Assembly: GCA_038326775.1 (NCBI GenBank)
Contig: JBBQKJ010000010.1
Span: forward strand, 7,236 to 71,235
Reading direction: 5' to 3'
Length of the DNA: 64,000 bases
Source of the DNA: Candidatus Geothermincolia bacterium
GTDB taxonomy: Bacteria > Actinomycetota > Geothermincolia > Fen-727 > Anoxymicrobiaceae
The position numbers and the translations under genes are program-made. The notes beneath the pieces were generated by a model. It did no database searches, was not told where the DNA came from, and saw nothing but the letters and a program-made list of their open reading frames with translations. Shown here in pieces: positions 3,455 through 59,173 of this stretch (positions are counted from its first letter, which is position 1; each line of letters begins with the position of its first letter).

Positions 3455-5185
3455 TTATTGCCCAATGCGGGATATTGGCATCCGCCAGTCGCGCCCGAAG
3501 GCGCGAGGGGTTATCTTCACGCCCACCGGTGCCTGGCGCCTCTTGAACTCGTTGGCGTCGACCCTGCCTATCACCGATTGAACAAGTTCAGCCGGCGAAC
3601 CGCGCCTGACAATCTCACGCGGGCTCAGCGCCTCCTCGATGTAAGCCTCGAGCACCGGGTCCAGCTCTTCGTACGGCGGGAGGCTGTCGGTATCCAGCTG
3701 CCCCTCGCGAAGCTCAGCGGTCGGGGGCCGCTCTATCACGTGGCGGGGGATCACGTCTCGCCTTTCCCTGGAGTTTATGTACTCCGCGACCTCATATACC
3801 TGCGTCTTGAGCAGATCCTTGATAAGGGCGAAGCCCCCGGCCATATCCCCGTACAGCGTGCAATAGCCCATACTTAGCTCGCTCTTGTTGCCCGTCGCCA
3901 GCACGAGCCAGCCGAACCGGTTGGAGAAAGCCATCAACAGGTTACCCCTGACGCGGGCCTGGATGTTCTCGAACGTCTCACCTTCCTCGGCATTTCCCAC
4001 CTCATCTCTGAGAGTCTCGCGATATGCCGCGTATATGTCACCGATAGGTACGGAGAGGAGCTTCACCTCGAGGTTTCGGGCTAGTTCGCGCGCGGCCTCA
4101 GCGCTCTCACCTGATGTGTACTTCGAGGGCAGGAAAACACAGACTACGTTGTCGCTCCCGAGCGCTCCCACCGCCAGCGCCGCGGTCAGAGCCGAGTCGA
4201 TGCCCCCTGAGAGCCCCAGCACGACCTTGCGAAAACCGTTTTTGGCCACGTACTCCCGCAGGCCCAGCACGATAGCCTCGTATATTTCCTCGACAGGTGA
4301 CAGACCCCGGGGGCTCTCGGGCGCGGTTACCTCAGGCGGGCCGTCTACATTCGCTTCAGGGCGCTCGAGCGCACACACATCGATGACACGTGGGCGCTCT
4401 TTAGAGCCGTACCGGAACCGCGGCTCGAGCATCCTGGCACCCTTGAGTCCGCCCAGACTGATGCCGCAGAGCAGGAGATCCTCACTGAACCTGGGGGCCT
4501 CCGCGATGAACCCGAGCTGCGGGTGGTACACACATGAGCCTCCGTCGAAGACCAGCTCATCCTGAGCCCCGACGGTGTTTACGTAAGCAATGACGACGGG
4601 CCCGTCCATCGAGCGCGCTTCAATGAGCTTTTTGCGAAAGCCGAACTTGCCGCGGTTGAAGGGCGAGGCGGAGAGGTTGAGCACTATCTCGGCGCCGCCG
4701 CCCGCCACCTGCTCCTCCATGGGTCCTCCAGGGTACCAGATGTCCTCGCATATCGTTATGCCTACCCTGACTCCCGCGACGTCAAGGACAACGCTGCCCC
4801 TGCCCACGCCGAAGTACCTCTTTTCGTCGAAGACCCCGTAATTGGGCAGAAGTGCCTTGCGGTAAACGCACTGTATCTTATGGCGATTAATGACCGCCGC
4901 CGAGTTGAAAGTGTCATAGTCGCTCTCCACGAAGCCTACTACCGCGATTATGTCTTCGATTTGCTTCGCGAGCCCTCTCATTGCCGTCATGCTGCCCTCG
5001 GTGAACTCCGGTTTCAGCAGCAGGTCCTCCGGCGGATAGCCTGTGAGGCACAGTTCAGGAAACACGACTATGTCCGCGCCGGCCCTTGCCGCCCGTGCGG
5101 AATACTCGAGGATCTTCCTGGTGTTACTCTCAAGGTCACCAACGGCCGTGTTTACCTGCGCCAAGGCAATCAGAAGCTCGGTCAT
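3455..5185 (-). CDS. nadE: Glutamine-dependent NAD+ synthetase (N-terminal CN-hydrolase/nitrilase domain + NAD synthetase domain)
   Basis: MTELLIALAQVNTAVGDLESNTRKI...IVVFPELCLTGYPPEDL (nitrilase-type glutaminase) ... LGLSGGIDSAL (PP-loop SGGxDS); 576 aa. Confidence 0.9.
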   Translation of the reverse strand: MTELLIALAQVNTAVGDLESNTRKILEYSARAARAGADIVVFPELCLTGYPPEDLLLKPEFTEGSMTAMRGLAKQIEDIIAVVGFVESDYDTFNSAAVINRHKIQCVYRKALLPNYGVFDEKRYFGVGRGSVVLDVAGVRVGITICEDIWYPGGPMEEQVAGGGAEIVLNLSASPFNRGKFGFRKKLIEARSMDGPVVIAYVNTVGAQDELVFDGGSCVYHPQLGFIAEAPRFSEDLLLCGISLGGLKGARMLEPRFRYGSKERPRVIDVCALERPEANVDGPPEVTAPESPRGLSPVEEIYEAIVLGLREYVAKNGFRKVVLGLSGGIDSALTAALAVGALGSDNVVCVFLPSKYTSGESAEAARELARNLEVKLLSVPIGDIYAAYRETLRDEVGNAEEGETFENIQARVRGNLLMAFSNRFGWLVLATGNKSELSMGYCTLYGDMAGGFALIKDLLKTQVYEVAEYINSRERRDVIPRHVIERPPTAELREGQLDTDSLPPYEELDPVLEAYIEEALSPREIVRRGSPAELVQSVIGRVDANEFKRRQAPVGVKITPRAFGRDWRMPISRIGQ

Positions 5186-5218
5186 GTCTTTCTCCTGTAG
5201 ATCGTGAGCGGGGCTCGC

Positions 5219-5557
5219 TCAAATCGCCTTCATGCCGTGTTCACCGGTCCTTACCCTGATCGCTTCTTCTACTCTCGTCACGAAGATCTTGCCGTCTCCA
5301 ATACTCCCTGTGCGTGCCTTGCGCAGCACCGCATCGAGAGTCCTGTCAAGGTCCTCGTCCAGGACAACCACCTCTATCTTTACCTTGGGTATGAACGTGA
5401 CGGTGTACTCGTTGCCCCGCCACTGCTGTCTTATCCCCTTCTGTTTGCCGTGTCCGCGCACCTCGCTGACAGTAACACCTGGATAGCCAATCCCGGCAAG
5501 AGCCTCGAGCACCGCCTCCAGTCTGTCGGGTCTGATGATGGCCTCGACCTTGTTCAT
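5219..5557 (-). CDS. glnK: PII nitrogen regulatory protein (GlnK/GlnB family)
   Basis: MNKVEAIIRPDRLEAVLEALAGIGYPGVTVSEVRGHGKQKGI...GDGKIFVTRVEEAIRVRTGE is a classic PII sequence including the T-loop. It lies immediately downstream of amtB. Confidence 0.9.
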   Translation of the reverse strand: MNKVEAIIRPDRLEAVLEALAGIGYPGVTVSEVRGHGKQKGIRQQWRGNEYTVTFIPKVKIEVVVLDEDLDRTLDAVLRKARTGSIGDGKIFVTRVEEAIRVRTGEHGMKAI

Positions 5558-5585
5558 ATTCACCTCCTCCAAGCGACCTGGTCCT

Positions 5586-7103
5586 TCAGTCAAGCGCCAG
5601 TATCTCCGGTACGTCGTCTGTGTAAGCAGGCACTCCCATCTCGGTAACGTCGAGCCCGGCCAGCTCTTCTTCGGGGGAGACCCTTATCCCCATCACCTTG
5701 TCCTGCACCTTGAAAAAGACGTAGAAAATGGCGCACGCGAAGGCTATACAGGCTGCAGCTCCGATCAGCTGCGCGAAAAGCTGGCTCCAGTTACCGTAAA
5801 GTGCGCCGGTCACCGCGCCCCGCACGCCGTTCAACCCCGCGCCGTAAGTGCCGTCGGCGAATATCCCGAGCGCTATCACCCCCCAGAGCCCATTGACACC
5901 GTGCACCGCCACCGCCCCCACAGGGTCGTCGATCTTAAACCGCCTTTCCAAGGTGCAAACCGCGACACATACCAGCACCCCCGCGATAGCGCCGATGAGG
6001 GCGGCGGACCAACTGGGGACGAAGGCGCAAGGCGCGGTGATAGCGACCAACCCGGCCAGGCAGCCGTTAAGACTCATCGAAGGGTCGGGGTTCCCGGTCT
6101 TCTTCCACATGTAGAGCATGGCCGCCACCGCGCCGAAACACGATGCCAGAAGAGTATTTCCCGCTACTACAGCCAGGCGCAGGTCTTCGGCGTTAAGAGT
6201 ACTCGCGGCGTTAAAACCAAACCACCCGAATACAAGGAACATGCCGCCCACAATCGCCAGCGGTATATTGTGGCCGGGAATCGCCCGCGGCGTTCCGTCC
6301 TTCTTGAACTTCCCGAACCTCGGGCCGAGCACCAGGATTCCCATCAGGCCGGCCAAGCCGCCCATCGCGTGCACCACCGAGGAGCCGGCAAAGTCCACGA
6401 ACCCATTCCCCAGATGCGCCCTGGTCCCCAGCTGCGAAAGCCATCCGCCGCCCCAGACCCAGTTACCGAATATCGGGTAGGCGATCGCTCCCATGAAAAG
6501 GCCGTAGACGACGAACGCCGAGAATTTCCAGCGCTCGGCCAACGCGCCAGTCGGGATGGTTGCGGCGGTGTCCATGAAAACGACCTGGAAGAGGAAAAAG
6601 GCGAATATGCCAACATCGTAGGCCGGGCCGTTCAGGGCAAAGCCCTTCCAACCCAGCAGGCCCCACCCGCCAACAGAGAGCTCGCGAGTTAGAATCGGCT
6701 GCCCACCTAACATCTTGAGTGGCCCGATCCCACCGAACATGAGCGCGTATCCCACCAGATAAAAAGCCACGACCGCGATACCGAATATCATGAAGTTGGT
6801 CATCATGACGTGCAGGGCGTTCTTCTTCTGACAGAAGCCGGTCTCCACAAGCGCGAAGCCCGCCTGCATGAAGAACACCAGCGCCGCTCCAAGGAACAGC
6901 CACACGAAGGTAAGGCTGATCCTGGTGTGGCCGATCTCATCGAGCACCGCGTCGGTCGCCTGCCGCGCGGGCTTTGCGTCCCCTGGATTGTTGATGTCCA
7001 CCCTGGTGCCCGTATTCGCCCCATTCGGGTCTCCCGCTCGCGCCAGCGTCCCAACGCAGAATACCAGCCCCATCACTATGATCGATATAACCGCCGCCCG
7101 CAT
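5586..7103 (-). CDS. amtB: Ammonium transporter Amt family
   Basis: Multi-TM protein with Amt-family motifs (DFAGSSVVHAMGGLAGL..., GHNIPLAIVGGMFLVFGWFGFNA). Start chosen at MRAAVISII (GAAGGA RBS); the ORF could extend to 7178. Confidence 0.88.
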   Translation of the reverse strand: MRAAVISIIVMGLVFCVGTLARAGDPNGANTGTRVDINNPGDAKPARQATDAVLDEIGHTRISLTFVWLFLGAALVFFMQAGFALVETGFCQKKNALHVMMTNFMIFGIAVVAFYLVGYALMFGGIGPLKMLGGQPILTRELSVGGWGLLGWKGFALNGPAYDVGIFAFFLFQVVFMDTAATIPTGALAERWKFSAFVVYGLFMGAIAYPIFGNWVWGGGWLSQLGTRAHLGNGFVDFAGSSVVHAMGGLAGLMGILVLGPRFGKFKKDGTPRAIPGHNIPLAIVGGMFLVFGWFGFNAASTLNAEDLRLAVVAGNTLLASCFGAVAAMLYMWKKTGNPDPSMSLNGCLAGLVAITAPCAFVPSWSAALIGAIAGVLVCVAVCTLERRFKIDDPVGAVAVHGVNGLWGVIALGIFADGTYGAGLNGVRGAVTGALYGNWSQLFAQLIGAAACIAFACAIFYVFFKVQDKVMGIRVSPEEELAGLDVTEMGVPAYTDDVPEILALD

Positions 7104-7202
7104 CAGGCGAATCCTTCTCTCTCTCAGGTTCAGCGGTATCGCGCCTTCCCACATACCCGCCTCCATCGTCAAACTCATGTTTTTCCAGGATACCAGCGGG
7201 AT

Positions 7203-7229: not shown

Positions 7230-7329
7230 ATGCAGGTAACATCAGCGTTGTAATGAAAGGAAGGGTTTCAAAGCTTTCAAAGCGAAGTTGATCAAGCCCC
7301 TTCACCCGCGACGTGATGGCTGACCGGCG

Positions 7330-25239: not shown

Positions 25240-25782
25240 ATGAAGAAATGCGTTACCCTGGCCCTGGTGATAATGCTGGTTGCCACAGTCGCGGTGCTGC
25301 TCCCCGGCTGCGCAGGGGACACCAAGCAGGCTAAACAGTATATGCAGAACGGCATCAAGCTAGTGAAGCAGCTCCAGGAGGAACAAAGCACCTGGCAGAC
25401 CGCTGTTTCATCGTCGATGACCAACATATCCGACCAGGTCGCCTACCAGGCGGCTATCGACAAGGCAAAAGCCTCGGCGACCAGTCTTTCCAAGACAGCG
25501 GGCGAGGCAAAGGCCGAGTTCGAGAAGATCAAGGGCCTCAACGGCGTTGATGACTACGTCAAGTACGCCAACTTTCAGATAGCGGCCCTCGACAAGTTCC
25601 AGGAATTCATAACCAAGACCAACTCCTTCTTTGACCAGGTTATCGCAATGGTCAAATCCGGTGACATCACGGGCTTGACCAGCGCGGAAGAGGCATATAC
25701 CAAAGAGGGGAGCAAGCTGGGCGAAGAGATGAACAAGCTGGACGAGGAAGCCCAGAAACTCAAGGCCGACAAGAACCTTTAA
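25240..25782 (+). CDS. Lipoprotein of unknown function (paralog 1)
   Basis: MKKCVTLALVIMLVATVAVLLPGCAG gives a signal peptide plus LPGC lipobox. Acidic/Lys-rich helical body. AAAGGAG RBS. Confidence 0.6.
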   Translation: MKKCVTLALVIMLVATVAVLLPGCAGDTKQAKQYMQNGIKLVKQLQEEQSTWQTAVSSSMTNISDQVAYQAAIDKAKASATSLSKTAGEAKAEFEKIKGLNGVDDYVKYANFQIAALDKFQEFITKTNSFFDQVIAMVKSGDITGLTSAEEAYTKEGSKLGEEMNKLDEEAQKLKADKNL

Positions 25783-25915
25783 GGACTGCTCTTTATTCTG
25801 AAGAGGCCCCTCCGGCAGGCCATTGGGGCCTGTTCTTCAATCCGGTGGGCGGCGGCGGTTTTACTAATCTGTGCCTTGAGATCCTTTTGGGGCATTGATC
25901 CATGAAGTGGGTAAG

Positions 25916-26491
25916 ATGAGAAAGCTTATCAACCTGACCCTGGTTGTTTTCCTTGGGATCGCCCTGAGTGGGATGCTCGAGGGCTGCGGTGGCGACAGGG
26001 GCAAAGCGCGCGAGTACCTCGAGAGAGGAGATAAGATCATTGTCGTCATAGAGAAGAAAAGCGAGACCGTTGGAAGCGATACCCAGACCATGTTCACCGA
26101 CCTCTTCGGCGCTCTCTCCTCCGGCAAGGCCCCCGATGTCGCCTCGTTCGCCCGGGACTCGGCTCAGATAAAGACAGTGGTGGACGGTATGATAGCCAAA
26201 GCAGCCCGGGCGAAGTCATCCTTCGAGAAGGTATCAACCCTCGAGGACGTGCCCGACTACGCCAGGTACGTCGATCTGAAGATCAAGATCATCGACCGCC
26301 AGGTGGCGGGCCTGAAGCAGCTCGAGACGTTTCTCGATGAGGCCGGGAACAGGCTGGCCGCCAAGCCGTTCGACCTCATCGCTTTTCAGACATTTGTCAC
26401 CGGGTTCGGCGACTCCATCCAGAAACAGGGCGAGGAATCCGGCAAGCTCCAGAAGCAGGCCGCGGACCTCAAGAAAGAGAAGAAACTCTAA
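25916..26491 (+). CDS. Lipoprotein of unknown function (paralog 2 of 25240-25782)
   Basis: MRKLINLTLVVFLGIALSGMLEGCGG lipobox. Length, spacing and C-terminal KxxKKL tail match the upstream gene (...FEKIKGLNGVDDYVKYANFQI... versus ...FEKVSTLEDVPDYARYVDLKI...). Confidence 0.6.
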   Translation: MRKLINLTLVVFLGIALSGMLEGCGGDRGKAREYLERGDKIIVVIEKKSETVGSDTQTMFTDLFGALSSGKAPDVASFARDSAQIKTVVDGMIAKAARAKSSFEKVSTLEDVPDYARYVDLKIKIIDRQVAGLKQLETFLDEAGNRLAAKPFDLIAFQTFVTGFGDSIQKQGEESGKLQKQAADLKKEKKL

Positions 26492-27327: not shown

Positions 27328-28101
27328 TCAATAGCAGTACATGTTGCCGTAAGGCCTGTGCGAAAACGGCATCAGCTTGGCGAATTCGTCTATAGATACC
27401 GGGGAGATGTCGGCCCCGGTCTCGGCCGCGAACTCGGCGAGAAGGCTCTCCAGCTGACAGCGGTCTTCTTCCTCAAGCGGAAACACCCTGACCTCTTCCC
27501 CGAGCTGTCGTTCCGATACCTGACCACGAAGAAAGATGACACCGCCGTGCATGCCGGTTCCCACGTAGTTTCCGACGAGAGGGCCTTCCTCCGCATTCAG
27601 GCCCAGCAGCACCATGACACCGCCGGCCATGTATTCACCGAAGAAGTCGCCGGCGCGGCCGCCCGCCACGATCACCGGCACCTGGTCCTTGAAGGACTTC
27701 ATGTGGATACCGACCCGGTAACCGACGTTGCCGAGGACGAATATCCTGCCACCGCGCATCCCGTAGCCCATGACATCGCCCACATGGCCTTTCACCACTA
27801 TCTTGCCGCTGTTCATGGTGTTGCCGACCCCGTCCTGCGCATTTTCGTTCACGAACAGCGTGGGGCCGTCCATGAAAGCCCCAAGATCGTTTCCTGGGAC
27901 GCCGTTGACGATGATCCGCACCTTGTCCGTCAGGCCGTCGCCTATGTAGCGCTGACCGTTAACGCCGTCGAGCGTTATCTCCCGGCAGCCCTCCGCAATA
28001 AGGCCGCGTACCCGGCAGTTCAGGTCTTTGTAGTGGACGCCTGTCGCGTCGACGGTCATGCTCTTCGACCCCGTCTTGTCGCTGGTGGCCGCCTTCCCCA
28101 T
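27328..28101 (-). CDS. Glutamate synthase C-terminal (GXGXG) domain protein (archaeal-type split GOGAT)
   Basis: ...IVNGVPGNDLGAFMDGPTLFVNENAQDGVGNTMNSGKIVVKGHVGDVMGYGMRGGRIFVLGNVGYRVGIHM... shows repeated GxxGxxG beta-helix turns. Start chosen at MGKAATS to avoid a 145-nt overlap. Confidence 0.8.
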   Translation of the reverse strand: MGKAATSDKTGSKSMTVDATGVHYKDLNCRVRGLIAEGCREITLDGVNGQRYIGDGLTDKVRIIVNGVPGNDLGAFMDGPTLFVNENAQDGVGNTMNSGKIVVKGHVGDVMGYGMRGGRIFVLGNVGYRVGIHMKSFKDQVPVIVAGGRAGDFFGEYMAGGVMVLLGLNAEEGPLVGNYVGTGMHGGVIFLRGQVSERQLGEEVRVFPLEEEDRCQLESLLAEFAAETGADISPVSIDEFAKLMPFSHRPYGNMYCY

Positions 28102-28115
28102 GTCTTCCCTCGCTC

Positions 28116-29618
28116 TCACCTTCCGGCTGCTTTCACGTCGAGTATCTCGGTTGTCATCTCGTCGAGGCCAAGGGCGCGCAGCCTCTCCCTGTTTCCCCGA
28201 AGCGATTCGACCGCGTTGACGCCCAGCGCCCCCAGTATCTCCTTCAGCTCGAGCGACCACGCGTTTATGAGGTTCACCAACCGCTCGGCCCCCCAGTCGG
28301 GGTCAAGCCTTCCGGTGAGCTCCGGCCGCTGGGTGGCCAGGCCCCAGGAGCAGTTCCCGGTATAGCACTTCTGGCAGAGCCTGCACCCCAGCGCGATGAG
28401 CGCGGCCGTGCCTACGCCCACGGCGTCCGCCCCCAGCGCTATCGCCTTTGCCACGTCGGCGCTGGACCGTATTCCCCCCGCCGCGATGATCGAGACCCAG
28501 TTCCTTATGCCTTCACTGCGAAGCTGCTGATCGACGACGGCAAGCGCTATCTCGACGGGGATGCCCACGTGATCGCGTATGACCGCCGGGGCCGCCCCCG
28601 TTCCGCCGCGGAACCCGTCCAGGTAGATGATATCGGCCCCCGCTCTCGCGATTCCGCTGGCGATGGCCGCTACGTTGTGTACGGCCGCTATCTTGACCGA
28701 CACCGGCTTGTAGCCGGTCGCCTCTTTGATCGCGTAGATCAACTGCCGCAGGTCCTCTATGGAATAGATGTCGTGGTGTGGGGCGGGCGAAAGCGCGTCG
28801 GTGCCGATCGGTATCATGCGCGTACTCGAAACTTCTCTTCCTATCTTCTCCCCCGGCAGGTGGCCGCCGATGCCGGGCTTGGCGCCCTGGCCCACCTTGA
28901 TCTCGACCGCCACGCCTCGGTTGAGGTACTCGGAGTGGACCCCGAACCTGCCAGACGCGCACTGGACTATTACATTGTCGGCGTAAGGATACAACTCCTC
29001 GTGAAGCCCGCCCTCACCGGTGTTCATTACCGTCCCCAGCCGTTCCGCCGCGATTGCCAGCGCCTTGTGGACGTTGAGGCTGACCGACCCGTAAGACATC
29101 CCGCTGAATATTATCGGAATGTCCAGCTTTATATTGTTGCTTATCTTCGTGTCCAGCTTGTAACCGCCGTTTGAGGGCTCCAAGACCAGACGGTCTGGCT
29201 TGCGGCCAAGGTATGTGCGCAGCTCCATAGGTTCGCGCAGCGGGTCGATTGAAGGGTTTGTGACCTGGCAGGCGTCTATCAGCAGGTGGTCGAACACGTT
29301 CAGCCAGGGCTGGTCGTTGCCCATGCCGGTCAGTATCATGCCGGAGCTCTCCGCCTGCTTCCATATTGCCTTGCGACGGTCGACATCCCAGGAGGCGTGC
29401 TCGCGGAACGCCAGCGGGTTTCGGGCGATGGATATCGCCTCCTCCGGGCAGAACACCACGCACCTGTGGCAGGCGACGCACTTTGAGGCATCCGACGTGA
29501 CCCTGTCCTTGAAGTCGAAGACCCCGAACCCGCAGTTGAGCGTGCAGCGTTTGCACTTACGGCATCGCTCGTGGTCCACGACCACCTGGAACTCGTTCGT
29601 AACCATGTTGCCCGGCAT
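28116..29618 (-). CDS. Glutamate synthase FMN/Fe-S central domain with N-terminal 2x[4Fe-4S] ferredoxin domain
   Basis: N-terminus CRKCKRCTLNCGFG...CVACHRCVVFCP; the core has GOGAT central-domain motifs (...GEGGLHEE..., ...GQGAKPGIGGHLPGEKI..., ...LDGFRGGTGAAP...). Confidence 0.85.
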   Translation of the reverse strand: MPGNMVTNEFQVVVDHERCRKCKRCTLNCGFGVFDFKDRVTSDASKCVACHRCVVFCPEEAISIARNPLAFREHASWDVDRRKAIWKQAESSGMILTGMGNDQPWLNVFDHLLIDACQVTNPSIDPLREPMELRTYLGRKPDRLVLEPSNGGYKLDTKISNNIKLDIPIIFSGMSYGSVSLNVHKALAIAAERLGTVMNTGEGGLHEELYPYADNVIVQCASGRFGVHSEYLNRGVAVEIKVGQGAKPGIGGHLPGEKIGREVSSTRMIPIGTDALSPAPHHDIYSIEDLRQLIYAIKEATGYKPVSVKIAAVHNVAAIASGIARAGADIIYLDGFRGGTGAAPAVIRDHVGIPVEIALAVVDQQLRSEGIRNWVSIIAAGGIRSSADVAKAIALGADAVGVGTAALIALGCRLCQKCYTGNCSWGLATQRPELTGRLDPDWGAERLVNLINAWSLELKEILGALGVNAVESLRGNRERLRALGLDEMTTEILDVKAAGR

Positions 29619-30739
29619 CAGAGGTCACCCTTCAGTTCCCCGATGACCGGCTGGCCCGCGCTCGGGGCCCATACACGGTCCGGCCGTGGACATATTTGCC
29701 TAATGGCCGACTCCTCGCTCGAGATATAGAGGAAGTCATCCTTACCGGCCGCGACAAGCGGCCGCAGCTTTATCCTGTCGTTCAAACCGACTATGCCGCG
29801 GGAGTATCCCACGATCACCGCGAACGGCCCGTTCACGAGCGCGCTGCCGTAGGCCACGCGCAGAGCCTCCTCGAGCTCACGCTCGATCGGGTCGGACTCG
29901 TTATCTATGTCTTTCCAGAAAGGCGCCGCCAGAACTTTGCAGGCGACCTCGAGAGGCAACCTGTGCTTACGGACAAGGAGGTCAAACAGGTACGCCATCA
30001 CCTCTGTGTCTGTCAGCAGCGTGCACTCGTAGCCGAACATCTCCAGGTAGCGCTTGTTGATGCCGTAGGAGGATATCTCGCCGTTGTGCACGACAGCCCA
30101 GTCGAGGATATTAAACGGGTGGGCGCCTCCCCACCAACCGGGTGTATTCGTGGGAAATCTTCCGTGGCCTATCCAGCTGTAACCCGAGTAATCGGGCAGG
30201 CGGTAGAACTCGCCTACGTCCTCCGCGAACCCGACCGCCTTGAATACCCCCATGTTCTTGCCACTTGAGAAGACGAAGGTCCCCGGCACAGTCGTATTGA
30301 TGCCCATGACCAGCCTTACCATGAAGTCATCTGGCTCGATTGCCTCAGCAAGGAGCTTCTCTCCCCTCGGCAGTGCGAAGTAACGGCGCAGTTCGGGAAC
30401 GTCCTGTATCTGGGGGCTCGGAAGTGTAGGTATCTCCTCGGCGGCCTCGACCTCGAGGTTCATCTCGAGCATCTCCTCGCATGCGGCCCTGCCGTCAGCG
30501 TCCTCGAACATTATATGGAGCGCGTAGTGGTCATTGTATCTCGGGTATATCCCGTACCCCGCGAAGCCTCCGCCCAACCCGTTGCCCCGGTCGTGCAAGA
30601 CCTTCATTGACTCGATGATGACGTCTCCGCCTATCATCTTGCCGTCCTGGCTTATCACGCCGGAGAGCCCACAGGCCGCCGGGACACGGCTCTCGTCCAC
30701 TCGCCACTTCGAATACTTATCACCGAACGCCAATGTCAA
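29618..30739 (-). CDS. Glutamate synthase class-II (Ntn) glutamine amidotransferase domain protein
   Basis: ...ACGLSGVISQDG...HDRGNGLGGGFAGYGIY...HGRFPTNTPGWWGGAHPF... The putative nucleophile Cys lies at residue 23 of the annotated ORF, suggesting a propeptide or an alternative start. ATGA start/stop overlaps on both sides. Confidence 0.8.
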   Translation of the reverse strand: MTLAFGDKYSKWRVDESRVPAACGLSGVISQDGKMIGGDVIIESMKVLHDRGNGLGGGFAGYGIYPRYNDHYALHIMFEDADGRAACEEMLEMNLEVEAAEEIPTLPSPQIQDVPELRRYFALPRGEKLLAEAIEPDDFMVRLVMGINTTVPGTFVFSSGKNMGVFKAVGFAEDVGEFYRLPDYSGYSWIGHGRFPTNTPGWWGGAHPFNILDWAVVHNGEISSYGINKRYLEMFGYECTLLTDTEVMAYLFDLLVRKHRLPLEVACKVLAAPFWKDIDNESDPIERELEEALRVAYGSALVNGPFAVIVGYSRGIVGLNDRIKLRPLVAAGKDDFLYISSEESAIRQICPRPDRVWAPSAGQPVIGELKGDL

Positions 30740-32073
30740 CCATCCTTCCCTTCGAAAGTGTCCTTTAAGAGCCTGGCGAGCTCCGCGGTGCCGGGTTCAG
30801 CGACGGGCCCCAGACCCAGCCTGGCACGGGCTCTTTCCCTTGCCTTTCCCAGCACGCCCGTTTTATGGAACATCTCTATGCCCTGCAGCGTCTCGGCCGG
30901 ACCGATACCCCGATCGAGCGCCATGCGCTTGGCCTCCTTGAAGACCTTCATCATACCGAAGTTGTTCGGGCACATATCGGTGCAGGTGCCGCATTCCAGG
31001 CATTTCCATATATCGTCCCCGACGATGACCTCTTCAGCTTCTCCCGCCAGGATACGGGACAGGACACCGTGGGGTTGATACGTGTCATCGACCTGCGCTA
31101 CCGGACAATCGTTGGAGCATGATTCGCAGTCTACGCATGTGAGCATTGCCTGGTAGTCGAATTCTTCCGGTACGGCCCGGCGAATCCGCCGCAGCTCATC
31201 CCAGCGGTCAACAAACGGCTCGACCGGGACCCTGTGCATATCCAGGCCTAACTCCGCCGGGGAGAAGCCGAGCGCGAGCCCGGCAAGCTCCGTGTAATAC
31301 AAGACCGGGATGCTCATACCCTCCATCTGCTTCTGGATAACCATCTGCTGCGTCTCGAACTGCCCGAAGCACGCCGGGCAGGTAACGATCAATGCGTCCG
31401 CTTGCTCCCGCTCGAGCTCGAGCAGTTTGAGCCTGGCGCTTTCCATCGACTCCTCCGGGTTGCCCGCGCGCCCTAGAGCTTCGCCGCAGCACATGAGCTT
31501 GGACTCGTAATCTATACTGGTGGCTCCAAGGCACTCTACAAGGTGGTCGAGCTTCACTGGGTGCAGGGAGTCGTCCATACGTACTGTGGGCGACGGCCTC
31601 AAGACCTGGCAACCAACATGGACGCCCACCCTCATGCCATCGAGCCGGCGCTCCACCTTCCTGGCGATGACATCCGGCCCAACCTTGTCATGGAGCACCT
31701 CGACAATGTGATACACGGAAGTGCGGAAATTGTAGGAGAGGCCGATTTCCTCGAGGCGCCCCGATACTTGCTTCCGTAGCGCGCTCGAGGCGCTGAAGGC
31801 GCTTATCGCACTCCGGAAACTCGCGTAGCAACCGTTGCAGGCGACCAGCAGGTCGCCCCCGTTCTTCTCGGCTAGCGCAAGGTTGCGCGCGGCGGTAAGG
31901 TACCACGCCTCCTCCGAGAGCGTCTCAACGAGGAACTTCTCCGGGCAGCAAGTGAACCCCTCGACCTCTTGGTACCTGACGCCAAGCTCATCGAGCACCA
32001 GGCGCAGGGACTTCTCGAGGAAAGGAAACCTGCCAGGTATTGTGCAACCCCAGAAGAAAATGTACTCGCTCAC
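30736..32073 (-). CDS. Heterodisulfide-reductase-like Fe-S oxidoreductase: two CCG (HdrB-type) domains followed by HdrC-type 2x[4Fe-4S] ferredoxin domain
   Basis: CCG domain 1: WGC-x31-CCPEK-x35-CNGC. CCG domain 2: ...GCQV...MCCGE...CPAC. C-terminus: CVDCESCSNDCP and CLECGTCTDMCP. Confidence 0.75.
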   Translation of the reverse strand: MSEYIFFWGCTIPGRFPFLEKSLRLVLDELGVRYQEVEGFTCCPEKFLVETLSEEAWYLTAARNLALAEKNGGDLLVACNGCYASFRSAISAFSASSALRKQVSGRLEEIGLSYNFRTSVYHIVEVLHDKVGPDVIARKVERRLDGMRVGVHVGCQVLRPSPTVRMDDSLHPVKLDHLVECLGATSIDYESKLMCCGEALGRAGNPEESMESARLKLLELEREQADALIVTCPACFGQFETQQMVIQKQMEGMSIPVLYYTELAGLALGFSPAELGLDMHRVPVEPFVDRWDELRRIRRAVPEEFDYQAMLTCVDCESCSNDCPVAQVDDTYQPHGVLSRILAGEAEEVIVGDDIWKCLECGTCTDMCPNNFGMMKVFKEAKRMALDRGIGPAETLQGIEMFHKTGVLGKARERARARLGLGPVAEPGTAELARLLKDTFEGKDG

Positions 32074-32259
32074 TTGAATAGACGCTTCCTAACCTGTGTT
32101 TTCTTTCAATATCCTGCGAATTCTAGCACCCATAATACATACGTTCAATGACGGCCGCCAACGCCATCTTTGACCCCTTCATCGTGGTCACAGTCAAACG
32201 CAAAGCGCCCCACCGTGCACCAGGTGAGGCGAATTGCGGTCGCGGAAAGTCTCAATCTC

Positions 32260-33597
32260 TCATAATATCGACAGGTGGCATTCGAGCTCGTACTCGGTCA
32301 CTTGCGCCCTGTACTCCTCCCACTCGATCTTCTTGTCGATGATAAGGTTTTCGAACACGTGGTCGCCAAGGCACTCTCTCAACAGCTCGCTTTTCTCGGC
32401 AAGGCGTATGGCCTCCCAGAGGTCCTCCGGCAGCGACTCGATGCCAAGCTCCCTGCGCTCCCGCTCTCCCATCTCGTATATGTTGCGCTCGACGGGCTCA
32501 CCGGGGTCAATGTTTTCCTCCATGCCCTTGAGGCCCGCCGCTAGCATCGCGGCGAACGCCAGGTACGGGTTGGCGGCCGGGTCGGGCGAGCGGAACTCCA
32601 CCCTGGTGGACTTCTCCTTTCCCGGCTTGTACACGGGAACCCTGATCATGTCCGAGCGGTTGCGCCGCGCCCAGGACAGGTAGACGGGAGCCTCGTACCC
32701 GGGAACGAGCCTCTTATAGGAGTTAACCCACTGGTTTGTGACCAGGCACATTTCCGGGGCGTACTTCATGAGGCCGCCGATGAAGCTCTTGGCCTCCCTG
32801 GTCAGGAAATACTTGTCGTTCGCGTCGAAGAACGCGTTGGCGTCACCCTTGAACAGCGACATGTGCGTGTGCATCCCGCTGCCGTTCTCACCAAAAAGAG
32901 GCTTGGGCATGAAGGTCGCGTACACCCCGTGCTTCATTGCCACCTCCTTGATGACAAGACGGTAGGTCATTGCGTTGTCGGCCATCTGCAGGGCGTCGGT
33001 GTAGCGCAGGTCTATCTCGTGCTGGCTTGGGCCCACCTCGTGGTGGCTGTACTCGACCCCTATGCCCATCTCCTCGAGTGTTAGCACCATATCGCGGCGC
33101 AGGTCGCTTGCAACGTCCAGGGGGGTAAGATCAAAGTAGCCGCCGTGGTCTATCACCTCCGGAGGGTACTTATCGTTCGCGAAAACGTAGAACTCGAGTT
33201 CCGGCCCCACATAGAAGGTGTAGCCCAGATCCTGAGCCTTCATGAGGTTCCTCTTGAGCACGTAGCGCGGGTCGCCGGCATGCGGGCTGCGGTCTGGCTC
33301 GACTATGTCGCAGAACATGCGCGCCACGGCGCTATGGCCGCTGGGCCGCCAGGGCAGCAGGGCGAATGTTGAAGGGTCCGGCTGCGCGATCATATCGCTC
33401 TCGTCGATCCGGGCGAAACCCTGGATCGAGGACCCGTCGAACCCCATTCCGCTGTCCATGGCCTCCTCCAACTCCTCCCTGGTAATGGCGAAGCTCTTTA
33501 GGAAACCCAGGATATCGGTGAACCAGAGCCTTATGAACTTGACGTCGTGCTCCCTGACGGCCTCGAGTACGTACGCTTTGTCCGGGGTGTCAGTCAT
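32260..33597 (-). CDS. glnA: Glutamine synthetase type I
   Basis: ...KFIRLWFTDILGFLKSF...FDGSSIQGF... GS-I catalytic motifs (...NGSGMHTHMSLF...); about 445 aa. Confidence 0.92.
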   Translation of the reverse strand: MTDTPDKAYVLEAVREHDVKFIRLWFTDILGFLKSFAITREELEEAMDSGMGFDGSSIQGFARIDESDMIAQPDPSTFALLPWRPSGHSAVARMFCDIVEPDRSPHAGDPRYVLKRNLMKAQDLGYTFYVGPELEFYVFANDKYPPEVIDHGGYFDLTPLDVASDLRRDMVLTLEEMGIGVEYSHHEVGPSQHEIDLRYTDALQMADNAMTYRLVIKEVAMKHGVYATFMPKPLFGENGSGMHTHMSLFKGDANAFFDANDKYFLTREAKSFIGGLMKYAPEMCLVTNQWVNSYKRLVPGYEAPVYLSWARRNRSDMIRVPVYKPGKEKSTRVEFRSPDPAANPYLAFAAMLAAGLKGMEENIDPGEPVERNIYEMGERERRELGIESLPEDLWEAIRLAEKSELLRECLGDHVFENLIIDKKIEWEEYRAQVTEYELECHLSIL

Positions 33598-33653
33598 GAG
33601 CCCTCCCTTTGATCTGATGGCGTTCATTACGCATTTGATTGTAGGGCAGGGTT

Positions 33654-33717: not shown

Positions 33718-34383
33718 TCAGGCGGAAACGAAACGGTAACCGACGCCGTGTACCGTCTCAATGTAACTCCGCTTACCCTCGATCTTGGCCCTCAGCCGGC
33801 GGACGTGGACGTCAACCGTTCTGGTCCCGCCGAAGTAGTCGTAGCCCCAGATGCCTCTGAGCAGCTCCTCCCTGGTGAACGCCTTCCCTGGTGAGCCCGC
33901 CAGCTTTCTCAGAAGCTCGAACTCTTTGAACGTGAGGTCTACCGGCTTTATGTCCAGGAAGACCTGGTGCGCTTCCAGGTTTATTACGAGCTCGCCGAAC
34001 ACCACGGCTTCGCCCTCTCCGCCGCGCCGGAGCGCGACCACTTTTACCCTGGAGACAAGCTCCCCGGCGCCACCCGGCGCCACCATGAAATCATCGACGA
34101 CCCTGAGGGTATCGGTGTCCTCCAGCCTGTCCATGCTTCCCATGGTTGTGATTAGCGGCACCCGGGACATCCATCCGCCGGCGCGGTTCATCGACGCCCT
34201 GGTTTCCCTGGCAAGGCGGGTGGGTGGGTTAGCGAGGACTACTGCGGAAAGGGGCTCGAGGTCCGGGCTCTCCAACTCGGAGGGGCTCTCGAGAAGTACT
34301 GCGGCAATATCCAGCAATTCCAACCCATCCAGCAGGCTGCCAGCATATTCCGACCCGTCACTGTGGAAAGCGTAAGCCGCCAT
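33718..34383 (-). CDS. OmpR/PhoB-family transcription regulator with degenerate receiver domain (GlnR-like orphan regulator)
   Basis: C-terminal winged helix ...FGELVINLEAHQVFLDIKPVDLTFKEFELLRKLAGSPGKAFTREELLRGIWGYDYFGGTRTVDVHVRRLRAKIE...GYRF. The N-terminal REC-like fold lacks the acidic pocket, and the phospho-Asp position reads ...AVVLANPP. Confidence 0.6.
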   Translation of the reverse strand: MAAYAFHSDGSEYAGSLLDGLELLDIAAVLLESPSELESPDLEPLSAVVLANPPTRLARETRASMNRAGGWMSRVPLITTMGSMDRLEDTDTLRVVDDFMVAPGGAGELVSRVKVVALRRGGEGEAVVFGELVINLEAHQVFLDIKPVDLTFKEFELLRKLAGSPGKAFTREELLRGIWGYDYFGGTRTVDVHVRRLRAKIEGKRSYIETVHGVGYRFVSA

Positions 34384-56065: not shown

Positions 56066-56155
56066 AAATTGGGGTCAGATCTGATTTCATCAGCCGGTCT
56101 TACTCGAGCCGTGTGACGGCCAACGACTGATGAAATCAGATCTGACCCCAATTTT
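56065..56155. repeat. Perfect 29-bp AT-rich inverted repeat (arms 56065-56093 and 56127-56155) with 33-nt spacer; candidate bidirectional terminator between the Rieske gene and the glycyl-radical enzyme gene
   Basis: AAAATTGGGGTCAGATCTGATTTCATCAG ... CTGATGAAATCAGATCTGACCCCAATTTT. Both strands end in CCCCAAUUUU(U). The two arms touch the stop codons of the two convergent genes exactly. Confidence 0.55.
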
Positions 56156-59121
56156 TACACACCGTACTCGGCGCGCTCGATCAGCTCTGTCTGCATGTCG
56201 CGGTTCAGGGTGACGAAGTAAGCGTTGTAGCCGGATATGCGGACCAGGAGGTTGCGGTAGTACTCGGGGTGCGCCATCGCGTCGCGGAGCATATCGCTCG
56301 TAACCACGTTCATCTGCATCTGCATCCCGCCCAGGTCGAAGTACGTCTTTGCGTAGGAGTACATGTTCCGGACGACCTGCTCGTGCGTGTCATCCGCGCC
56401 CGGCACCACCTTGACGTTGAACGCCATGTTGTTGTTCATGCTGTGCGGGTCGAGCCTTGCCACGTCCCTGATGTTATCGAGGAGGTTCCTGCTCGCGTTG
56501 GGCTCGGGGGTGAGGCCCGGCGTGAACGCCCTGGTGGCCAGGCGCCCCGAGGGCAAGGCCCCCGTGAGGGTGCCGAACGCCACGTGGTTCGACATGGTCC
56601 AGAAGCCGGTCGTGTAGGGCCCTCCGCGGTAGTTGCGGTGCGCCAGGTAGGTATCGTGGGCGAACCTGGCGACCCTGTTGGCCATGTCGACTGCCTCGTC
56701 GCTCCCGGAGCCGAAGAACGGGACCTTACTGCTTGCCATGGCCCGCAGTGCGGGGTCGCTCTCGAAGTTCGAGTCGACGGCCTCTTTCAACTGCGCGAAA
56801 GTGACCACGCGGTCGTCGTAGACGAGCTTCTTTATGACCATCAGGGAATCGGTGACGTCCGCGAGCCCGATGCATGCCGCCCCGCTGGTGTTGTGGCGGG
56901 CCCCGCCCTTCGTGACGTCCCTTCCCTTCTTGATGGAGTCACTGATGAGCGCAGACAGCAGCGGCGTGGGGCGTATGTAGGCGTGGGCCTCTCCCATCAT
57001 GTTGTTGTACTCCACCGACGCGTCGATAAGGAACTCGAACTGGGTGGTGAAAGCGCCGTAGAAGTCCTCGAACGTCGGGAAGTCTCCCGCCTCGATGCGG
57101 CCTGTCTTCGGCCCGACGTCCCAGTTCATGAGCGGGTGCTTCCCGTTGTTCATCGCCATCTCCAGGGCGGCCACCATGTTCATCATCTGGAAGTTGGTGT
57201 GCCCCATGTGCCTGCCCCAGATAGTCGGCTCGACGCAGCCGACGGCTGCCCAGTCGCGCAGCTCCTCGGGCGGATAGTCGAACTCCTTCAGAGATTCCAT
57301 CACGGCGACATCGTTGTGCATGGAGGGTGTGGCCGCCGTTATTAGGTTGACCTCGCAGAGCCGCTTGAGATAAGTCTCGGAGTTCTTCTCGGGGTTATAC
57401 TTCGCGTTCATATTGGGGTCGCGGATGTTGAGCAGTTCCGTGACCTTCAGGAATATATAGGTCATGTCGTTGACCGCATCTTCGCCCAGTGGGGTCACGC
57501 CACCGAGGGTTATCGCCTGGTCGGACGAGCTGCCGCCGAATAGGTAGTTAGCCACGTCGGGGAACAGGGGAAGGTGGTCGGTGCACTTCATGAAGAAGCA
57601 GCCAACCAGCTCGATCGCTCTCCTGATATACACCTCCCGCTCCTCGGGGGTGGAAAGCTCCGCCATGCCGTCCTCGAAAAAGGGCTGGAACAGCTGGTCG
57701 AGGCGGCCCAGGGACAGCCCGGCGTTGGTATTCTCCATGTGCAGGCCCACGAACGTTATCCAGACCGCGTTGAGCGCTTCGTCGAGCGTTTCGCAGGGGT
57801 TCTCCGGGACTTTCGCGCACGTCCGCGCCAGGCTCTCCAGCTCGGCCACCCTGTCAGGATCGCTTTCGCGAGCAGCCTCGAGCCGGGCCTGCCTGCCCAG
57901 GTTGGCCGCGTAGGCGTTGACGCCCTGCAGACAGAGCTTCATCGCCTCCAGGGAGTCCTTCTTCTCCTGCGGCGGGCCCGCGCTCAGCTCGTCGTCTATC
58001 TCGGCGATGATGCCTGACGTCCCGAGCCGGAGCAGCTTGGGGAAGTCCGCTATGGTGTGCGAGAACGCGCTGGTCTTGAACATGAATATCACGGCAAAGC
58101 GCTCGTCGAGCCTCTGGCCCAGGGGATAGTCGTGTTTCACCCGCACCCACTCGCGCACGTTCCTCCTGGCCCAGAACGGGAAAACGTGATGGTGGAGGAC
58201 CTCGGCTGTCTCCTCAGATATCTCGTAGCTGTTGAGCATCCTGAACGGCGATGATCCCAGCTCCCCCCAGAACAGCGTCCCCGCCGCGTCCGGATAGCCG
58301 AGCACCCCTATCTCCATTGAGGTGGTCGTGCCCGCTATGAGGTCGTTTTTCCTTATGATGGGAACTCGGTTCTCCATCATGTGTTTATATGCCCGCGCCT
58401 GCCTGAGCTCGGGCACGTGGGGGTTTCCCTCACGATCGGTCTCGAAGCCGTTCTCGACGAACCAGTCGGTCATGAGCCTGGCGCGCTCACAGCAGACCTC
58501 CGGCTTGACCGTGAAGTGGATGTCCAGGAATCTCTTCAGTCTGGGGAAATCCTCGAGGGAGTATCCGGAGAGGTACGGCTCGGGCAGGTGCAAGACACCG
58601 GGGTCGACGCTTTCGGCCTTCATCCGGTCAAGTCGCCTGTTCTTCATCTCATCCCTGAGAGCCGGGTCCGCGGGAGGCGCCTGCCTAAGCCTCAGGGCGG
58701 TGTCCTCCACCTTCTGTTTGTCCATCATCCGGCGGTGAATCGGGCCGGCGATGAGCGAGATATAGAAGTTCAAGAGGGTCAAGTAGGTGAAGTTGCCTTC
58801 GGCGCGAACCTTGTTCTTGAGCAGGAGGTTAAAGACCTCGCTGGGCGGGAGCCTGACCATCTCCTTGAGGACCTCTTCGGCGGTGAACACCAGGCTGACG
58901 TCGCAGTCTTCGGGTATCTTCCTGGCGACCCTGACATGGCCGCCCTTGAATATCATGGCCTCCTCGACGCCGCGGTCCTCGGTGCGGAACCCAACGGAGA
59001 AGTCAATCCAGGATCCGTTGCCGCGCAGGTACCCATTGAGGCGCTTGCGATGGTTGAAGTTCGCCGCTATCAACCTCAGGGCGGCGTTAGCGACGTGATC
59101 CGTTAGAGTTCTGCCACTCAT
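56155..59121 (-). CDS. Glycyl radical enzyme, Cys-Val-Glu (eliminase/dehydratase-type) active site, with about 190-aa N-terminal SCP2-like extension (paralog A)
   Basis: C-terminal glycyl-radical motif ...LLVRISGYNAYFVTL... Thiyl loop ...WAAVGCVEPT... N-terminal region ...DCDVSLVFTAEEVLKEMVRLPPSEVFNLLLKNKVRAEGNFTYLTLLNFY... resembles the SCP2 sterol-carrier fold. 988 aa. Confidence 0.88.
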   Translation of the reverse strand: MSGRTLTDHVANAALRLIAANFNHRKRLNGYLRGNGSWIDFSVGFRTEDRGVEEAMIFKGGHVRVARKIPEDCDVSLVFTAEEVLKEMVRLPPSEVFNLLLKNKVRAEGNFTYLTLLNFYISLIAGPIHRRMMDKQKVEDTALRLRQAPPADPALRDEMKNRRLDRMKAESVDPGVLHLPEPYLSGYSLEDFPRLKRFLDIHFTVKPEVCCERARLMTDWFVENGFETDREGNPHVPELRQARAYKHMMENRVPIIRKNDLIAGTTTSMEIGVLGYPDAAGTLFWGELGSSPFRMLNSYEISEETAEVLHHHVFPFWARRNVREWVRVKHDYPLGQRLDERFAVIFMFKTSAFSHTIADFPKLLRLGTSGIIAEIDDELSAGPPQEKKDSLEAMKLCLQGVNAYAANLGRQARLEAARESDPDRVAELESLARTCAKVPENPCETLDEALNAVWITFVGLHMENTNAGLSLGRLDQLFQPFFEDGMAELSTPEEREVYIRRAIELVGCFFMKCTDHLPLFPDVANYLFGGSSSDQAITLGGVTPLGEDAVNDMTYIFLKVTELLNIRDPNMNAKYNPEKNSETYLKRLCEVNLITAATPSMHNDVAVMESLKEFDYPPEELRDWAAVGCVEPTIWGRHMGHTNFQMMNMVAALEMAMNNGKHPLMNWDVGPKTGRIEAGDFPTFEDFYGAFTTQFEFLIDASVEYNNMMGEAHAYIRPTPLLSALISDSIKKGRDVTKGGARHNTSGAACIGLADVTDSLMVIKKLVYDDRVVTFAQLKEAVDSNFESDPALRAMASSKVPFFGSGSDEAVDMANRVARFAHDTYLAHRNYRGGPYTTGFWTMSNHVAFGTLTGALPSGRLATRAFTPGLTPEPNASRNLLDNIRDVARLDPHSMNNNMAFNVKVVPGADDTHEQVVRNMYSYAKTYFDLGGMQMQMNVVTSDMLRDAMAHPEYYRNLLVRISGYNAYFVTLNRDMQTELIERAEYGV

Positions 59122-59173
59122 CACCCCTCACTCTCATGGCTACGGTTTACTGCCGGCATCGCGACGCTTCAGT

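Follow-up and report, generated by a model that had tools for sequence, protein, structure and literature searches.

We analyzed a 64,000-nucleotide stretch of DNA (hereafter, the window; positions 7,236 to 71,235 of contig JBBQKJ010000010.1, forward strand) from the Candidatus Geothermincolia bacterium assembly GCA_038326775.1. Here, the three genes of a split glutamate synthase (GOGAT) follow a gene for an HdrB-HdrC-like iron-sulfur protein (HdrBC) in one operon. We propose that HdrBC is the electron-entry subunit of this GOGAT, oxidizing a dithiol and passing single electrons through iron-sulfur clusters to the flavin mononucleotide (FMN) of the synthase. Judging from sequence comparisons, we give this reading a probability of roughly 0.55. 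The split GOGAT core and the HdrB/HdrC fold are both known, and HdrBC as a fourth GOGAT subunit would be the new element, making the system a substantial variant. Full-text literature searches returned no account of a link between HdrBC and either GOGAT or lipoate; the matches were instead GltD-like domains in HdrA or Nfn and unrelated Flx-Hdr systems.

The open reading frame (ORF) listing and a direct reading of the sequence place four co-directional genes on the minus strand between 27328 and 32073:

30736-32073, minus strand: HdrB-HdrC fusion-like protein, 445 aa; GTG start with AGGAAG 11 nt upstream
29618-30739, minus strand: GltS-type class-II (N-terminal nucleophile, Ntn) glutamine amidotransferase subunit, 373 aa; TTG start
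28116-29618, minus strand: ferredoxin-FMN (GltB synthase-domain) subunit, 500 aa; ATG start
27328-28101, minus strand: GXGXG (GltB C-terminal-domain-like) subunit, 257 aa; ATG start at 28101

The original prediction, made from the letters and their translations, had named four minus-strand genes with these domains, and the ORFs, Pfam matches and motifs agree with it. It had described ATGA overlaps at 30736-30739 and 29618, and here the actual junctions read differently. The hdrBC/amidotransferase junction is GTTGA, in which the TTG start (30739-30737) overlaps the TGA stop (30738-30736) to give a 4-nt gene overlap. The amidotransferase/FMN junction is TGATG, a 1-nt overlap at 29618 with the ATG and the TGA sharing one base. 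The 14-nt gap predicted before the last gene is correct, and GAGGGAAG forms a Shine-Dalgarno-like run ahead of the ATG at 28101. A purine-rich run of this kind lies upstream of all four starts.

Further upstream on the same strand lie the following elements:

32120-32148, minus strand: operon promoter, TTGAAC, 17 nt, TGcTAGAAT (extended -10)
32206-32231, minus strand: terminator-like hairpin just after the glnA stop, with a 9-bp stem (7 GC pairs) followed by CTTTGCGTTT
32260-33627, minus strand: glnA, type I glutamine synthetase (TIGR00653, 529.9 bits against a cut-off of 429), directly upstream of the operon
33718-34383, minus strand: GlnR-like orphan OmpR-family regulator with a winged helix and a degenerate receiver (Trans_reg_C, 1.6e-26)

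The 186-nt spacer between glnA and hdrBC thus holds the hairpin and then the promoter. Aligning this spacer from 11 Geothermincolia-type loci, we find that the block TCATTGAAC...TGCTA(G/A/C)AAT is kept in most of them, while the remainder of the spacer is variable; L003 and L008 depart from the block at the -35 element (related loci carry L numbers). GC-rich hairpins occupy the position equivalent to the post-glnA hairpin in related loci. Scanning for terminators inside the operon gave four weak hits, a total not above the shuffle expectation, and none was convincing. By these sequence features, the transcription unit begins with the hdrBC-like gene and has its own conserved promoter, and the hairpin separates it from glnA. 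The strong conservation upstream of hdrBC spans window positions 32120-32160 and the matching spacers of L001-L033, in the form TCATTGAAC-N17-TGCTAGAAT. Conservation extends past the -35 hexamer, and the bases there (GTCAT) might form a regulator site, possibly for GlnR. An inverted repeat, TTTGAC-N19-GTCAAA, lies just upstream of the promoter block at about 32168-32198.

As the upstream context gene, glnA fixes the pathway as glutamine synthetase-GOGAT (GS-GOGAT), and linkage to both glnA and the GlnR-like gene supports this assignment. At least 24 related loci have glnA linked to the cluster, and 20 have the GlnR-like gene; the homologue of the regulator in L083 gives a faint GlnR_1st match.

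The three downstream genes together are predicted to encode a split, archaeal-type GOGAT, as had been claimed from the sequence alone; the amidotransferase, ferredoxin-FMN and GXGXG domains are all found. The amidotransferase subunit matches GATase_2 at 27.9 bits (cut-off 19.9) and carries the GltS-type motifs GRFPTNT (193) and HNGEI (218). The FMN subunit matches Glu_synthase PF01645 at 466.8 bits and the GltB large chains in the PDB at E = 2e-69, and its N-terminal 2x[4Fe-4S] ferredoxin domain has motifs at residues 19-29 and 47-57. No split GOGAT structure was found among the PDB entries searched. The GXGXG subunit matches PF01493 at 115.5 bits (cut-off 32.5). In the FMN subunit, the cluster motif CRLCQKCYTGNC (residues 412-423, window 28350-28385) holds the Cx5Cx4C of the GltS [3Fe-4S] site together with a fourth Cys. 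With this extra Cys, the site may bind a [4Fe-4S] cluster instead of a [3Fe-4S] cluster.

The nucleophile of the amidotransferase, Cys23 (codon 30673-30671), is universally conserved across related loci, and it lies behind a 22-residue peptide:

30674-30739, minus strand: probable propeptide, 22 residues ahead of Cys23, a conserved peptide in Geothermincolia loci

The original prediction had offered propeptide processing or a mis-set start to account for this position. The pre-Cys peptide reads xxLAFGDQYxxWRVDxxKVPAAC in Geothermincolia, and it is clade-specific, with RPRYxEExxFKIHGGC in Coriobacteriia and PRIPSGC in Bacillota. Several relatives have GTG or TTG at the same position as the TTG start of the window gene. 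Across loci, the start codons lie 7-30 residues upstream of the catalytic Cys, and a Met immediately precedes that Cys in only 2 of about 80 loci. A mis-set start was rejected, as the upstream peptide shows conservation at the protein level and relatives share the start position. Other Ntn amidotransferases are known to autoprocess a propeptide, which is the likely explanation for a Cys at residue 23, given the clade-conserved peptide and the shared start.

The remaining gene product, HdrBC, has two Pfam CCG domains (4.8e-25) followed by Fer4_8 at residues 310-371. Its cluster-binding features are as follows:

31828-32046, minus strand: CCG motif 1, predicted first noncubane [4Fe-4S] site, C10-X31-C42C43-X35-C79xxC82
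31369-31611, minus strand: CCG motif 2, predicted second noncubane [4Fe-4S] site, C155-X39-C195C196-X35-C232xxC235; Pfam CCG at residues 149-239
30970-31137, minus strand: HdrC-like ferredoxin domain with two CxxCxxCxxxC motifs, residues 313-323 and 358-368

The claimed order, CCG-CCG and then ferredoxin with every signature Cys in place, was borne out, both CCG motifs and both CxxCxxCxxxC motifs being complete. The protein shows the HdrB-family pattern of two CX31-39CCX35-36CXXC motifs. All ten CCG Cys residues are invariant in 46 homologues with identity down to 44%, and the ferredoxin-domain Cys residues are invariant too. Among curated models, the best match is HdrB (TIGR03288), with HdrC models next; SdhE (119 bits) and TfrB (9.4e-14) match more weakly. 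Performing phmmer searches, we find that the HdrB part aligns full-length to methanogen HdrB chains (E = 8e-60 to 1e-53, about 35% identity) and the C-terminal part to HdrC (E about 1e-11 to 1e-13). An AlphaFold2 model was built on the 46 homologues (predicted local distance difference test score, pLDDT, 90.9). Using this model in Foldseek, we obtained template modelling (TM) scores of 0.91-0.92 with a root-mean-square deviation of 2.1 Å for HdrB (5odc_B, 8rwn_B) and TM scores of 0.57-0.60 for HdrC; LutA, EtfD and a Helicobacter CCG protein were much weaker matches. By sequence and by this model, HdrBC is a member of the HdrB/HdrC structural family.

HdrBC nevertheless fails, on its sequence and setting, the tests for a functional CoB-CoM heterodisulfide reductase, because the scores lie below cut-off, no HdrA partner is encoded within 8-10 kb and the host is not a methanogen. 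The equivalog cut-offs are not reached (TIGR03288, 250.7 against 345.15 bits; NF041780, 120.5 against 450), the HdrC models also stay under theirs, and none of the curated NCBIfam models claims the protein. Its database names are generic, either 'heterodisulfide reductase subunit B' or '4Fe-4S dicluster protein'.

Evidence for a functional tie between HdrBC and GOGAT comes from their linkage across genomes. Performing a pattern scan with one genome per GTDB species, we collected 217 relatives of the HdrBC protein, kept the best 80, and assessed linkage in these 80 loci by tblastn with the window proteins. The three GOGAT genes stand alongside HdrBC in 60 of the 80 loci, which are all 60 of the loci with enough flank. 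In the remaining 20, the contig breaks off on the flank that should carry the missing genes, as in L027, which has LipA, a lipoyl carrier protein (LCP) and HdrBC at its very start. With GAT for the amidotransferase gene, the order HdrBC-GAT-FMN-GXGXG is kept in 57 of the 60 complete loci and rearranged in 3. Thus, no HdrBC gene without GOGAT linkage appeared as a counter-example among the best 80 species-level loci. When the Bacillota proteins were used as seeds to scan metagenomes, about 20 more linked loci came to light. The co-occurrence of the CCG gene with split GOGAT, which had been put forward as a check, therefore holds in every informative genome locus. As 60 of 60 informative loci keep the four genes together, the arrangement is, on gene order, far beyond chance.

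This linkage spans three phyla (Actinomycetota, Bacillota and Nitrospirota) and three gene orders. The closest homologues come from metagenome-assembled genomes (MAGs) labelled Candidatus Anoxymicrobiaceae, Geothermincolia or Actinomycetota. HdrBC identity to the window protein is 59-79% in Geothermincolia-like Actinomycetota, 43-47% in Coriobacteriia and Anaerosomatales, 44-49% in Bacillota and 42-43% in Nitrospirota. The family boundary lies at distant, unfused HdrB relatives (L115-L117, 36-38% identity), which are not linked to GOGAT. At L115:8303-11024, and also in L116, the unfused HdrB-like CCG gene sits between NuoC-like and NuoD/[NiFe]-like genes. The L115 cluster resembles complex I or an energy-converting hydrogenase, an unusual setting for an HdrB homologue.

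Clustering the neighbour ORFs, we find that the only recurrent neighbours in Actinomycetota are a PdtaS-like kinase, an ANTAR regulator, glnA and GlnR. No hdrA or mvhD is present among the conserved neighbour families of the 80 loci (8-10 kb flank per side), and no hdrA, mvhD or flx is present among the Pfam-annotated called genes of L081-L084. At L083:7801-9799, and in 25-27 Coriobacteriia-type loci, genes for a PdtaS-like GAF histidine kinase and an ANTAR response regulator lie directly upstream of the HdrBC-GOGAT operon. This suggests, by gene content, antitermination control of the operon in the Coriobacteriia-type clade.

The evidence for a dithiol donor comes from the Bacillota-type clusters. 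Here, 8 loci from genomes and 14 from metagenomes carry lipoate genes in the interval from the GXGXG gene to the HdrBC gene. All of the Bacillota-type genome loci have, in this interval, a gene for a protein with GGTCLNRGCIPTK and HAHPTL(A/S)E, identified as dihydrolipoyl dehydrogenase (Lpd; TIGR01350, 504-570 bits against a cut-off of 408.8), and genes for LipB, LipA and the LCP often accompany it. In L019 and L036, Lpd is followed by LipB (passing TIGR00214), LipA (passing TIGR00510) and a 76-77-aa lipoyl domain, and HdrBC follows at once. This lipoyl domain is the LCP of the Bacillota-type clusters, a stand-alone, E2-type domain of 76-77 aa with the sequence ...EM(S/T)TSKA... Two orders occur, GAT-FMN-GXGXG-Lpd-(LipB-LipA-LCP)-HdrBC and GlnA-GXGXG-Lpd-LCP-HdrBC-GAT-FMN, and both of them place the lipoate genes inside the GOGAT cluster. 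The Bacillota-type clusters contain no genes for 2-oxoacid dehydrogenase or glycine cleavage. The lipoate insertions are located as follows:

L019:3203-6422, lipoate insertion
L036:3952-7829, lipoate insertion
L063:6209-7924, lipoate insertion
L017:6570-7949, lipoate insertion
L015, L027, L047, L051 and L088-L120, further loci with lipoate insertions

Close homologues of the LCP were also seen away from GOGAT genes. In an Omnitrophica MAG (L087:8021-10240), one adjoins genes for a pyridine-nucleotide disulfide oxidoreductase and an LplA/B-type ligase, and in Candidatus Brocadia (L085:10001-10336) another stands alone. These occurrences hint that anaerobes may use stand-alone lipoyl proteins more widely.

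Combining these observations, we propose that the four gene products would form one soluble, four-subunit glutamate synthase. The amidotransferase would be autoprocessed to expose Cys23 and would then hydrolyze glutamine, while the GXGXG subunit would have a structural role. The ferredoxin-FMN subunit would receive ammonia from the amidotransferase and reduce 2-iminoglutarate to glutamate. The HdrB-HdrC fusion would serve as the electron-entry module, the part played by GltD in NADPH-GOGAT. Its two noncubane [4Fe-4S] (CCG) sites would act in the thiol-oxidizing sense, the reverse of the Hdr reaction, converting a dithiol to a disulfide between them. The two electrons would then travel one by one to FMN, first over the pair of HdrC-type clusters, next over the pair in the GltB ferredoxin domain and last over the 3Fe/4Fe cluster.

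In the Bacillota-type systems, the donor would evidently be the dedicated dihydrolipoyl carrier protein, kept reduced by the operon-encoded Lpd with NAD(P)H. Lpd, the LCP and HdrBC would thus jointly convert a hydride donor into single electrons, as GltD does. From the textbook potentials of NADH (-320 mV), lipoamide (about -290 mV) and the 2-oxoglutarate+NH3/glutamate couple (about -140 mV), the path from NADH through lipoamide to glutamate runs downhill. In the window's lineage, the donor would be encoded away from the operon, as a lipoyl protein or some other dithiol. As no donor gene lies near the operon there, we infer the mechanism by homology (42-49% identity) to the relatives. The analysis shows the gene content, motifs, fold, operon signals and conserved linkage, and the lipoate genes of relatives; that the proteins assemble into a complex, which way the electrons run and which donor this organism uses are inferred. 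More broadly, the system could represent a further GOGAT class defined by its donor, in which an HdrB-type noncubane pair is run 'backwards' to oxidize a protein-bound dihydrolipoyl group or another dithiol for amino-acid biosynthesis. The sequence evidence leaves this wider claim evenly balanced.

Several known systems resemble parts of this scheme. In the thiol:fumarate reductase TfrAB of Methanothermobacter, a CCG subunit oxidizes thiols, and a flavin takes up the electrons to reduce a carbon substrate, the same logic as we propose for HdrBC-GOGAT. However, TfrAB is a flavoenzyme fumarate reductase and not a GOGAT, its domain order differs, and the thiols there are CoM-SH and CoB-SH. GltD of NAD(P)H-GOGAT likewise takes a two-electron donor and delivers single electrons to the iron-sulfur chain leading to the synthase FMN. 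The proteins are unrelated, and Lpd, the lipoyl carrier and HdrBC would stand in for one FAD/2x[4Fe-4S] subunit.

Methanogen HdrB and HdrC (PDB 5odc, 7bkb, 8rvu) share with HdrBC the two complete CCG motifs and the two ferredoxin-type clusters. Unlike methanogen HdrABC, the window protein has B and C fused in that order, has no HdrA nearby and belongs to a non-methanogen; HdrABC also reduces a disulfide, whereas the direction proposed here is thiol oxidation. The split GOGAT of methanogens has an FrhB-like subunit 4, and F420 dependence was proposed for it, though not proven (Kaster et al. 2011, PMC3087415). As here, the amidotransferase, ferredoxin-FMN and GXGXG parts are separately encoded and a donor-specific fourth subunit stands alongside, so that the methanogen enzyme sets a precedent for a swappable fourth GOGAT subunit. 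The fourth subunit there is FrhB-like and F420-binding, whereas it is an HdrB-HdrC fusion here, and the hosts here are bacterial (Actinomycetota, Bacillota).

In sHdr-LbpA sulfur oxidation, Hdr-like CCG proteins are tied to a dedicated lipoate-carrying protein and lipoylation enzymes (Cao et al. 2018, PMC6067878). The Bacillota-type loci are alike in that an Hdr-like CCG protein is genetically tied to a dedicated lipoate carrier and lipoylation genes. The carrier there is the GcvH-like LbpA, whereas an E2-type Biotin_lipoyl domain is found here, with canonical LipB and LipA for maturation and nitrogen assimilation as the pathway. No GcvH match, sHdrA, DsrE or TusA was found in the neighbourhoods of the GOGAT-linked loci.

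The original prediction had suggested a thiol/disulfide-linked or a flavin-bifurcating electron input. The lipoate genes in the clusters of Bacillota-type relatives favour the former, and several points weigh against it. To our knowledge, HdrB-type sites have never been shown to oxidize dihydrolipoyl groups, and the ferredoxin domain of the GltB-like subunit could take electrons from ferredoxin on its own. Searching for Lpd, lipoyl-domain, LipA/B, GcvH and thioredoxin genes, we found none in the 64-kb window and none in the Actinomycetota and Nitrospirota loci (8-10 kb flank per side), and the lipoyl carrier search gave no match labelled Actinomycetota. In three metagenome loci with the Bacillota order (L091, L093, L098), Lpd is missing from the interval between the GXGXG and HdrBC genes. 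Members of the lipoyl carrier family are found in unrelated settings too, and hence the family is not specific to the GOGAT system. Since some Bacillota-order loci and all Actinomycetota and Nitrospirota loci have no lipoate genes in the sequence examined, HdrBC is, by gene content, the invariant partner of GOGAT and the lipoate module is variably linked. A published figure legend lists lipA for genomes of related Hakuba actinobacterial clades (PMC7325909), and we take this as a lead only.

These points raise the question of whether HdrBC is a mere iron-sulfur wire, its CCG clusters relaying electrons from reduced ferredoxin or another one-electron donor without thiol chemistry. This would make the enzyme a ferredoxin-dependent GOGAT to which a polyferredoxin-like subunit has been added. 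The missing thiol-carrier gene near the operon in the window's lineage and the ferredoxin domain already present in the GltB subunit both speak for such a relay, and reduced ferredoxin should be available in a strict anaerobe with glycyl-radical enzymes (described below). However, a relay does not account for ten CCG Cys residues that stay invariant across 46 homologues, nor for a protein closer to true HdrB than to any relay-type protein, and the embedded lipoate genes of the Bacillota clusters are left without explanation. We consider it unlikely. More doubtful still is the reading in which HdrBC binds a bifurcating flavoprotein of the HdrA type, encoded at another locus, and GOGAT replaces the heterodisulfide as the high-potential acceptor. 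The glutamate couple and CoM-S-S-CoB have similar potentials, which would suit this role. HdrBC partners HdrA in all the characterized Hdr complexes (PDB 5odc, 7bkb, 8rvu), and hdrA-mvhD genes occur elsewhere in the genomes of related Actinobacteria (PMC7325909). Yet hdrA and mvhD were not found within 8-10 kb in the loci inspected, which counts against the flavin-bifurcating input that had been suggested; the CCG sites would become a dead end, and the Bacillota clusters provide Lpd and a lipoyl protein instead.

A CCG protein could also tie GOGAT to the membrane quinone pool in the fashion of SdhE, GlpC, GlcF or EtfD, giving a menaquinol-dependent GOGAT. CCG-domain proteins of this kind exist, and they are among the weaker matches of HdrBC (SdhE by score, EtfD and LutA in the fold search). 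Nevertheless, the HdrB score of 250.7 bits is twice the SdhE score, no membrane partner gene is present, and menaquinol, at about -74 mV, is a poor reductant for glutamate synthesis, which makes this reading very improbable. Inspecting HdrBC, we found no hydrophobic or membrane segment, and the membrane/quinone link was rejected on this ground. We give just as little credence to the view that the adjacency is fortuitous or that HdrBC is purely regulatory or redox-sensing, apart from catalysis. It is contradicted by linkage that holds in each of the 60 informative loci from genomes and in about 20 from metagenomes, across three gene orders and three phyla, and by window genes that overlap and share one conserved promoter. 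The reading that HdrBC admits electrons from a dithiol is thus the one that we favour.

Other features of the window bear on nitrogen metabolism and on the lifestyle of the host. A second nitrogen cluster occupies 3455-7178 on the minus strand:

5586-7178, minus strand: ammonium transporter (amtB)
5219-5593, minus strand: P-II protein (glnB)
3455-5185, minus strand: glutamine-dependent NAD synthetase

A GAF-ANTAR protein is encoded at 662-1516, close to amtB-glnB. At 56155-62146, also on the minus strand, a tandem pair of paralogous genes encodes PFL-like glycyl-radical enzymes of 989 and 990 aa; in both proteins, about 200 N-terminal residues form an extension not covered by the Pfam models. 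With these two tandem enzymes among its genes, the window fits a strictly anaerobic host. Between ribD and rpe (25240-26491, plus strand) are two adjacent, paralogous lipoprotein-like genes of 180 and 198 aa, each product having a signal peptide and a Cys. They are kept as a pair in about 10 related loci, and the corresponding L081 genes gave no informative Pfam match.

This conserved operon bears on three matters at once: the physiological electron donor of the split GOGATs of anaerobes, the substrates of most bacterial HdrB-like proteins, and the non-classical roles of lipoate that have lately started to come to light. The Bacillota supply a self-contained gene set (GOGAT, HdrBC, Lpd, LipB, LipA and the lipoyl carrier), and with it a hypothesis that could be reconstituted in vitro, in which electrons would pass from NAD(P)H to Lpd, the lipoyl protein, HdrBC and finally GOGAT. 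Annotation would also be corrected, as the names 'heterodisulfide reductase subunit B' and '4Fe-4S dicluster protein' inflate inferences of Hdr-based energy metabolism in subsurface Actinomycetota MAGs. If our reading is true, HdrB homologues of non-methanogens would gain a defined substrate, and lipoate would act in anabolism as a diffusible carrier of electrons.

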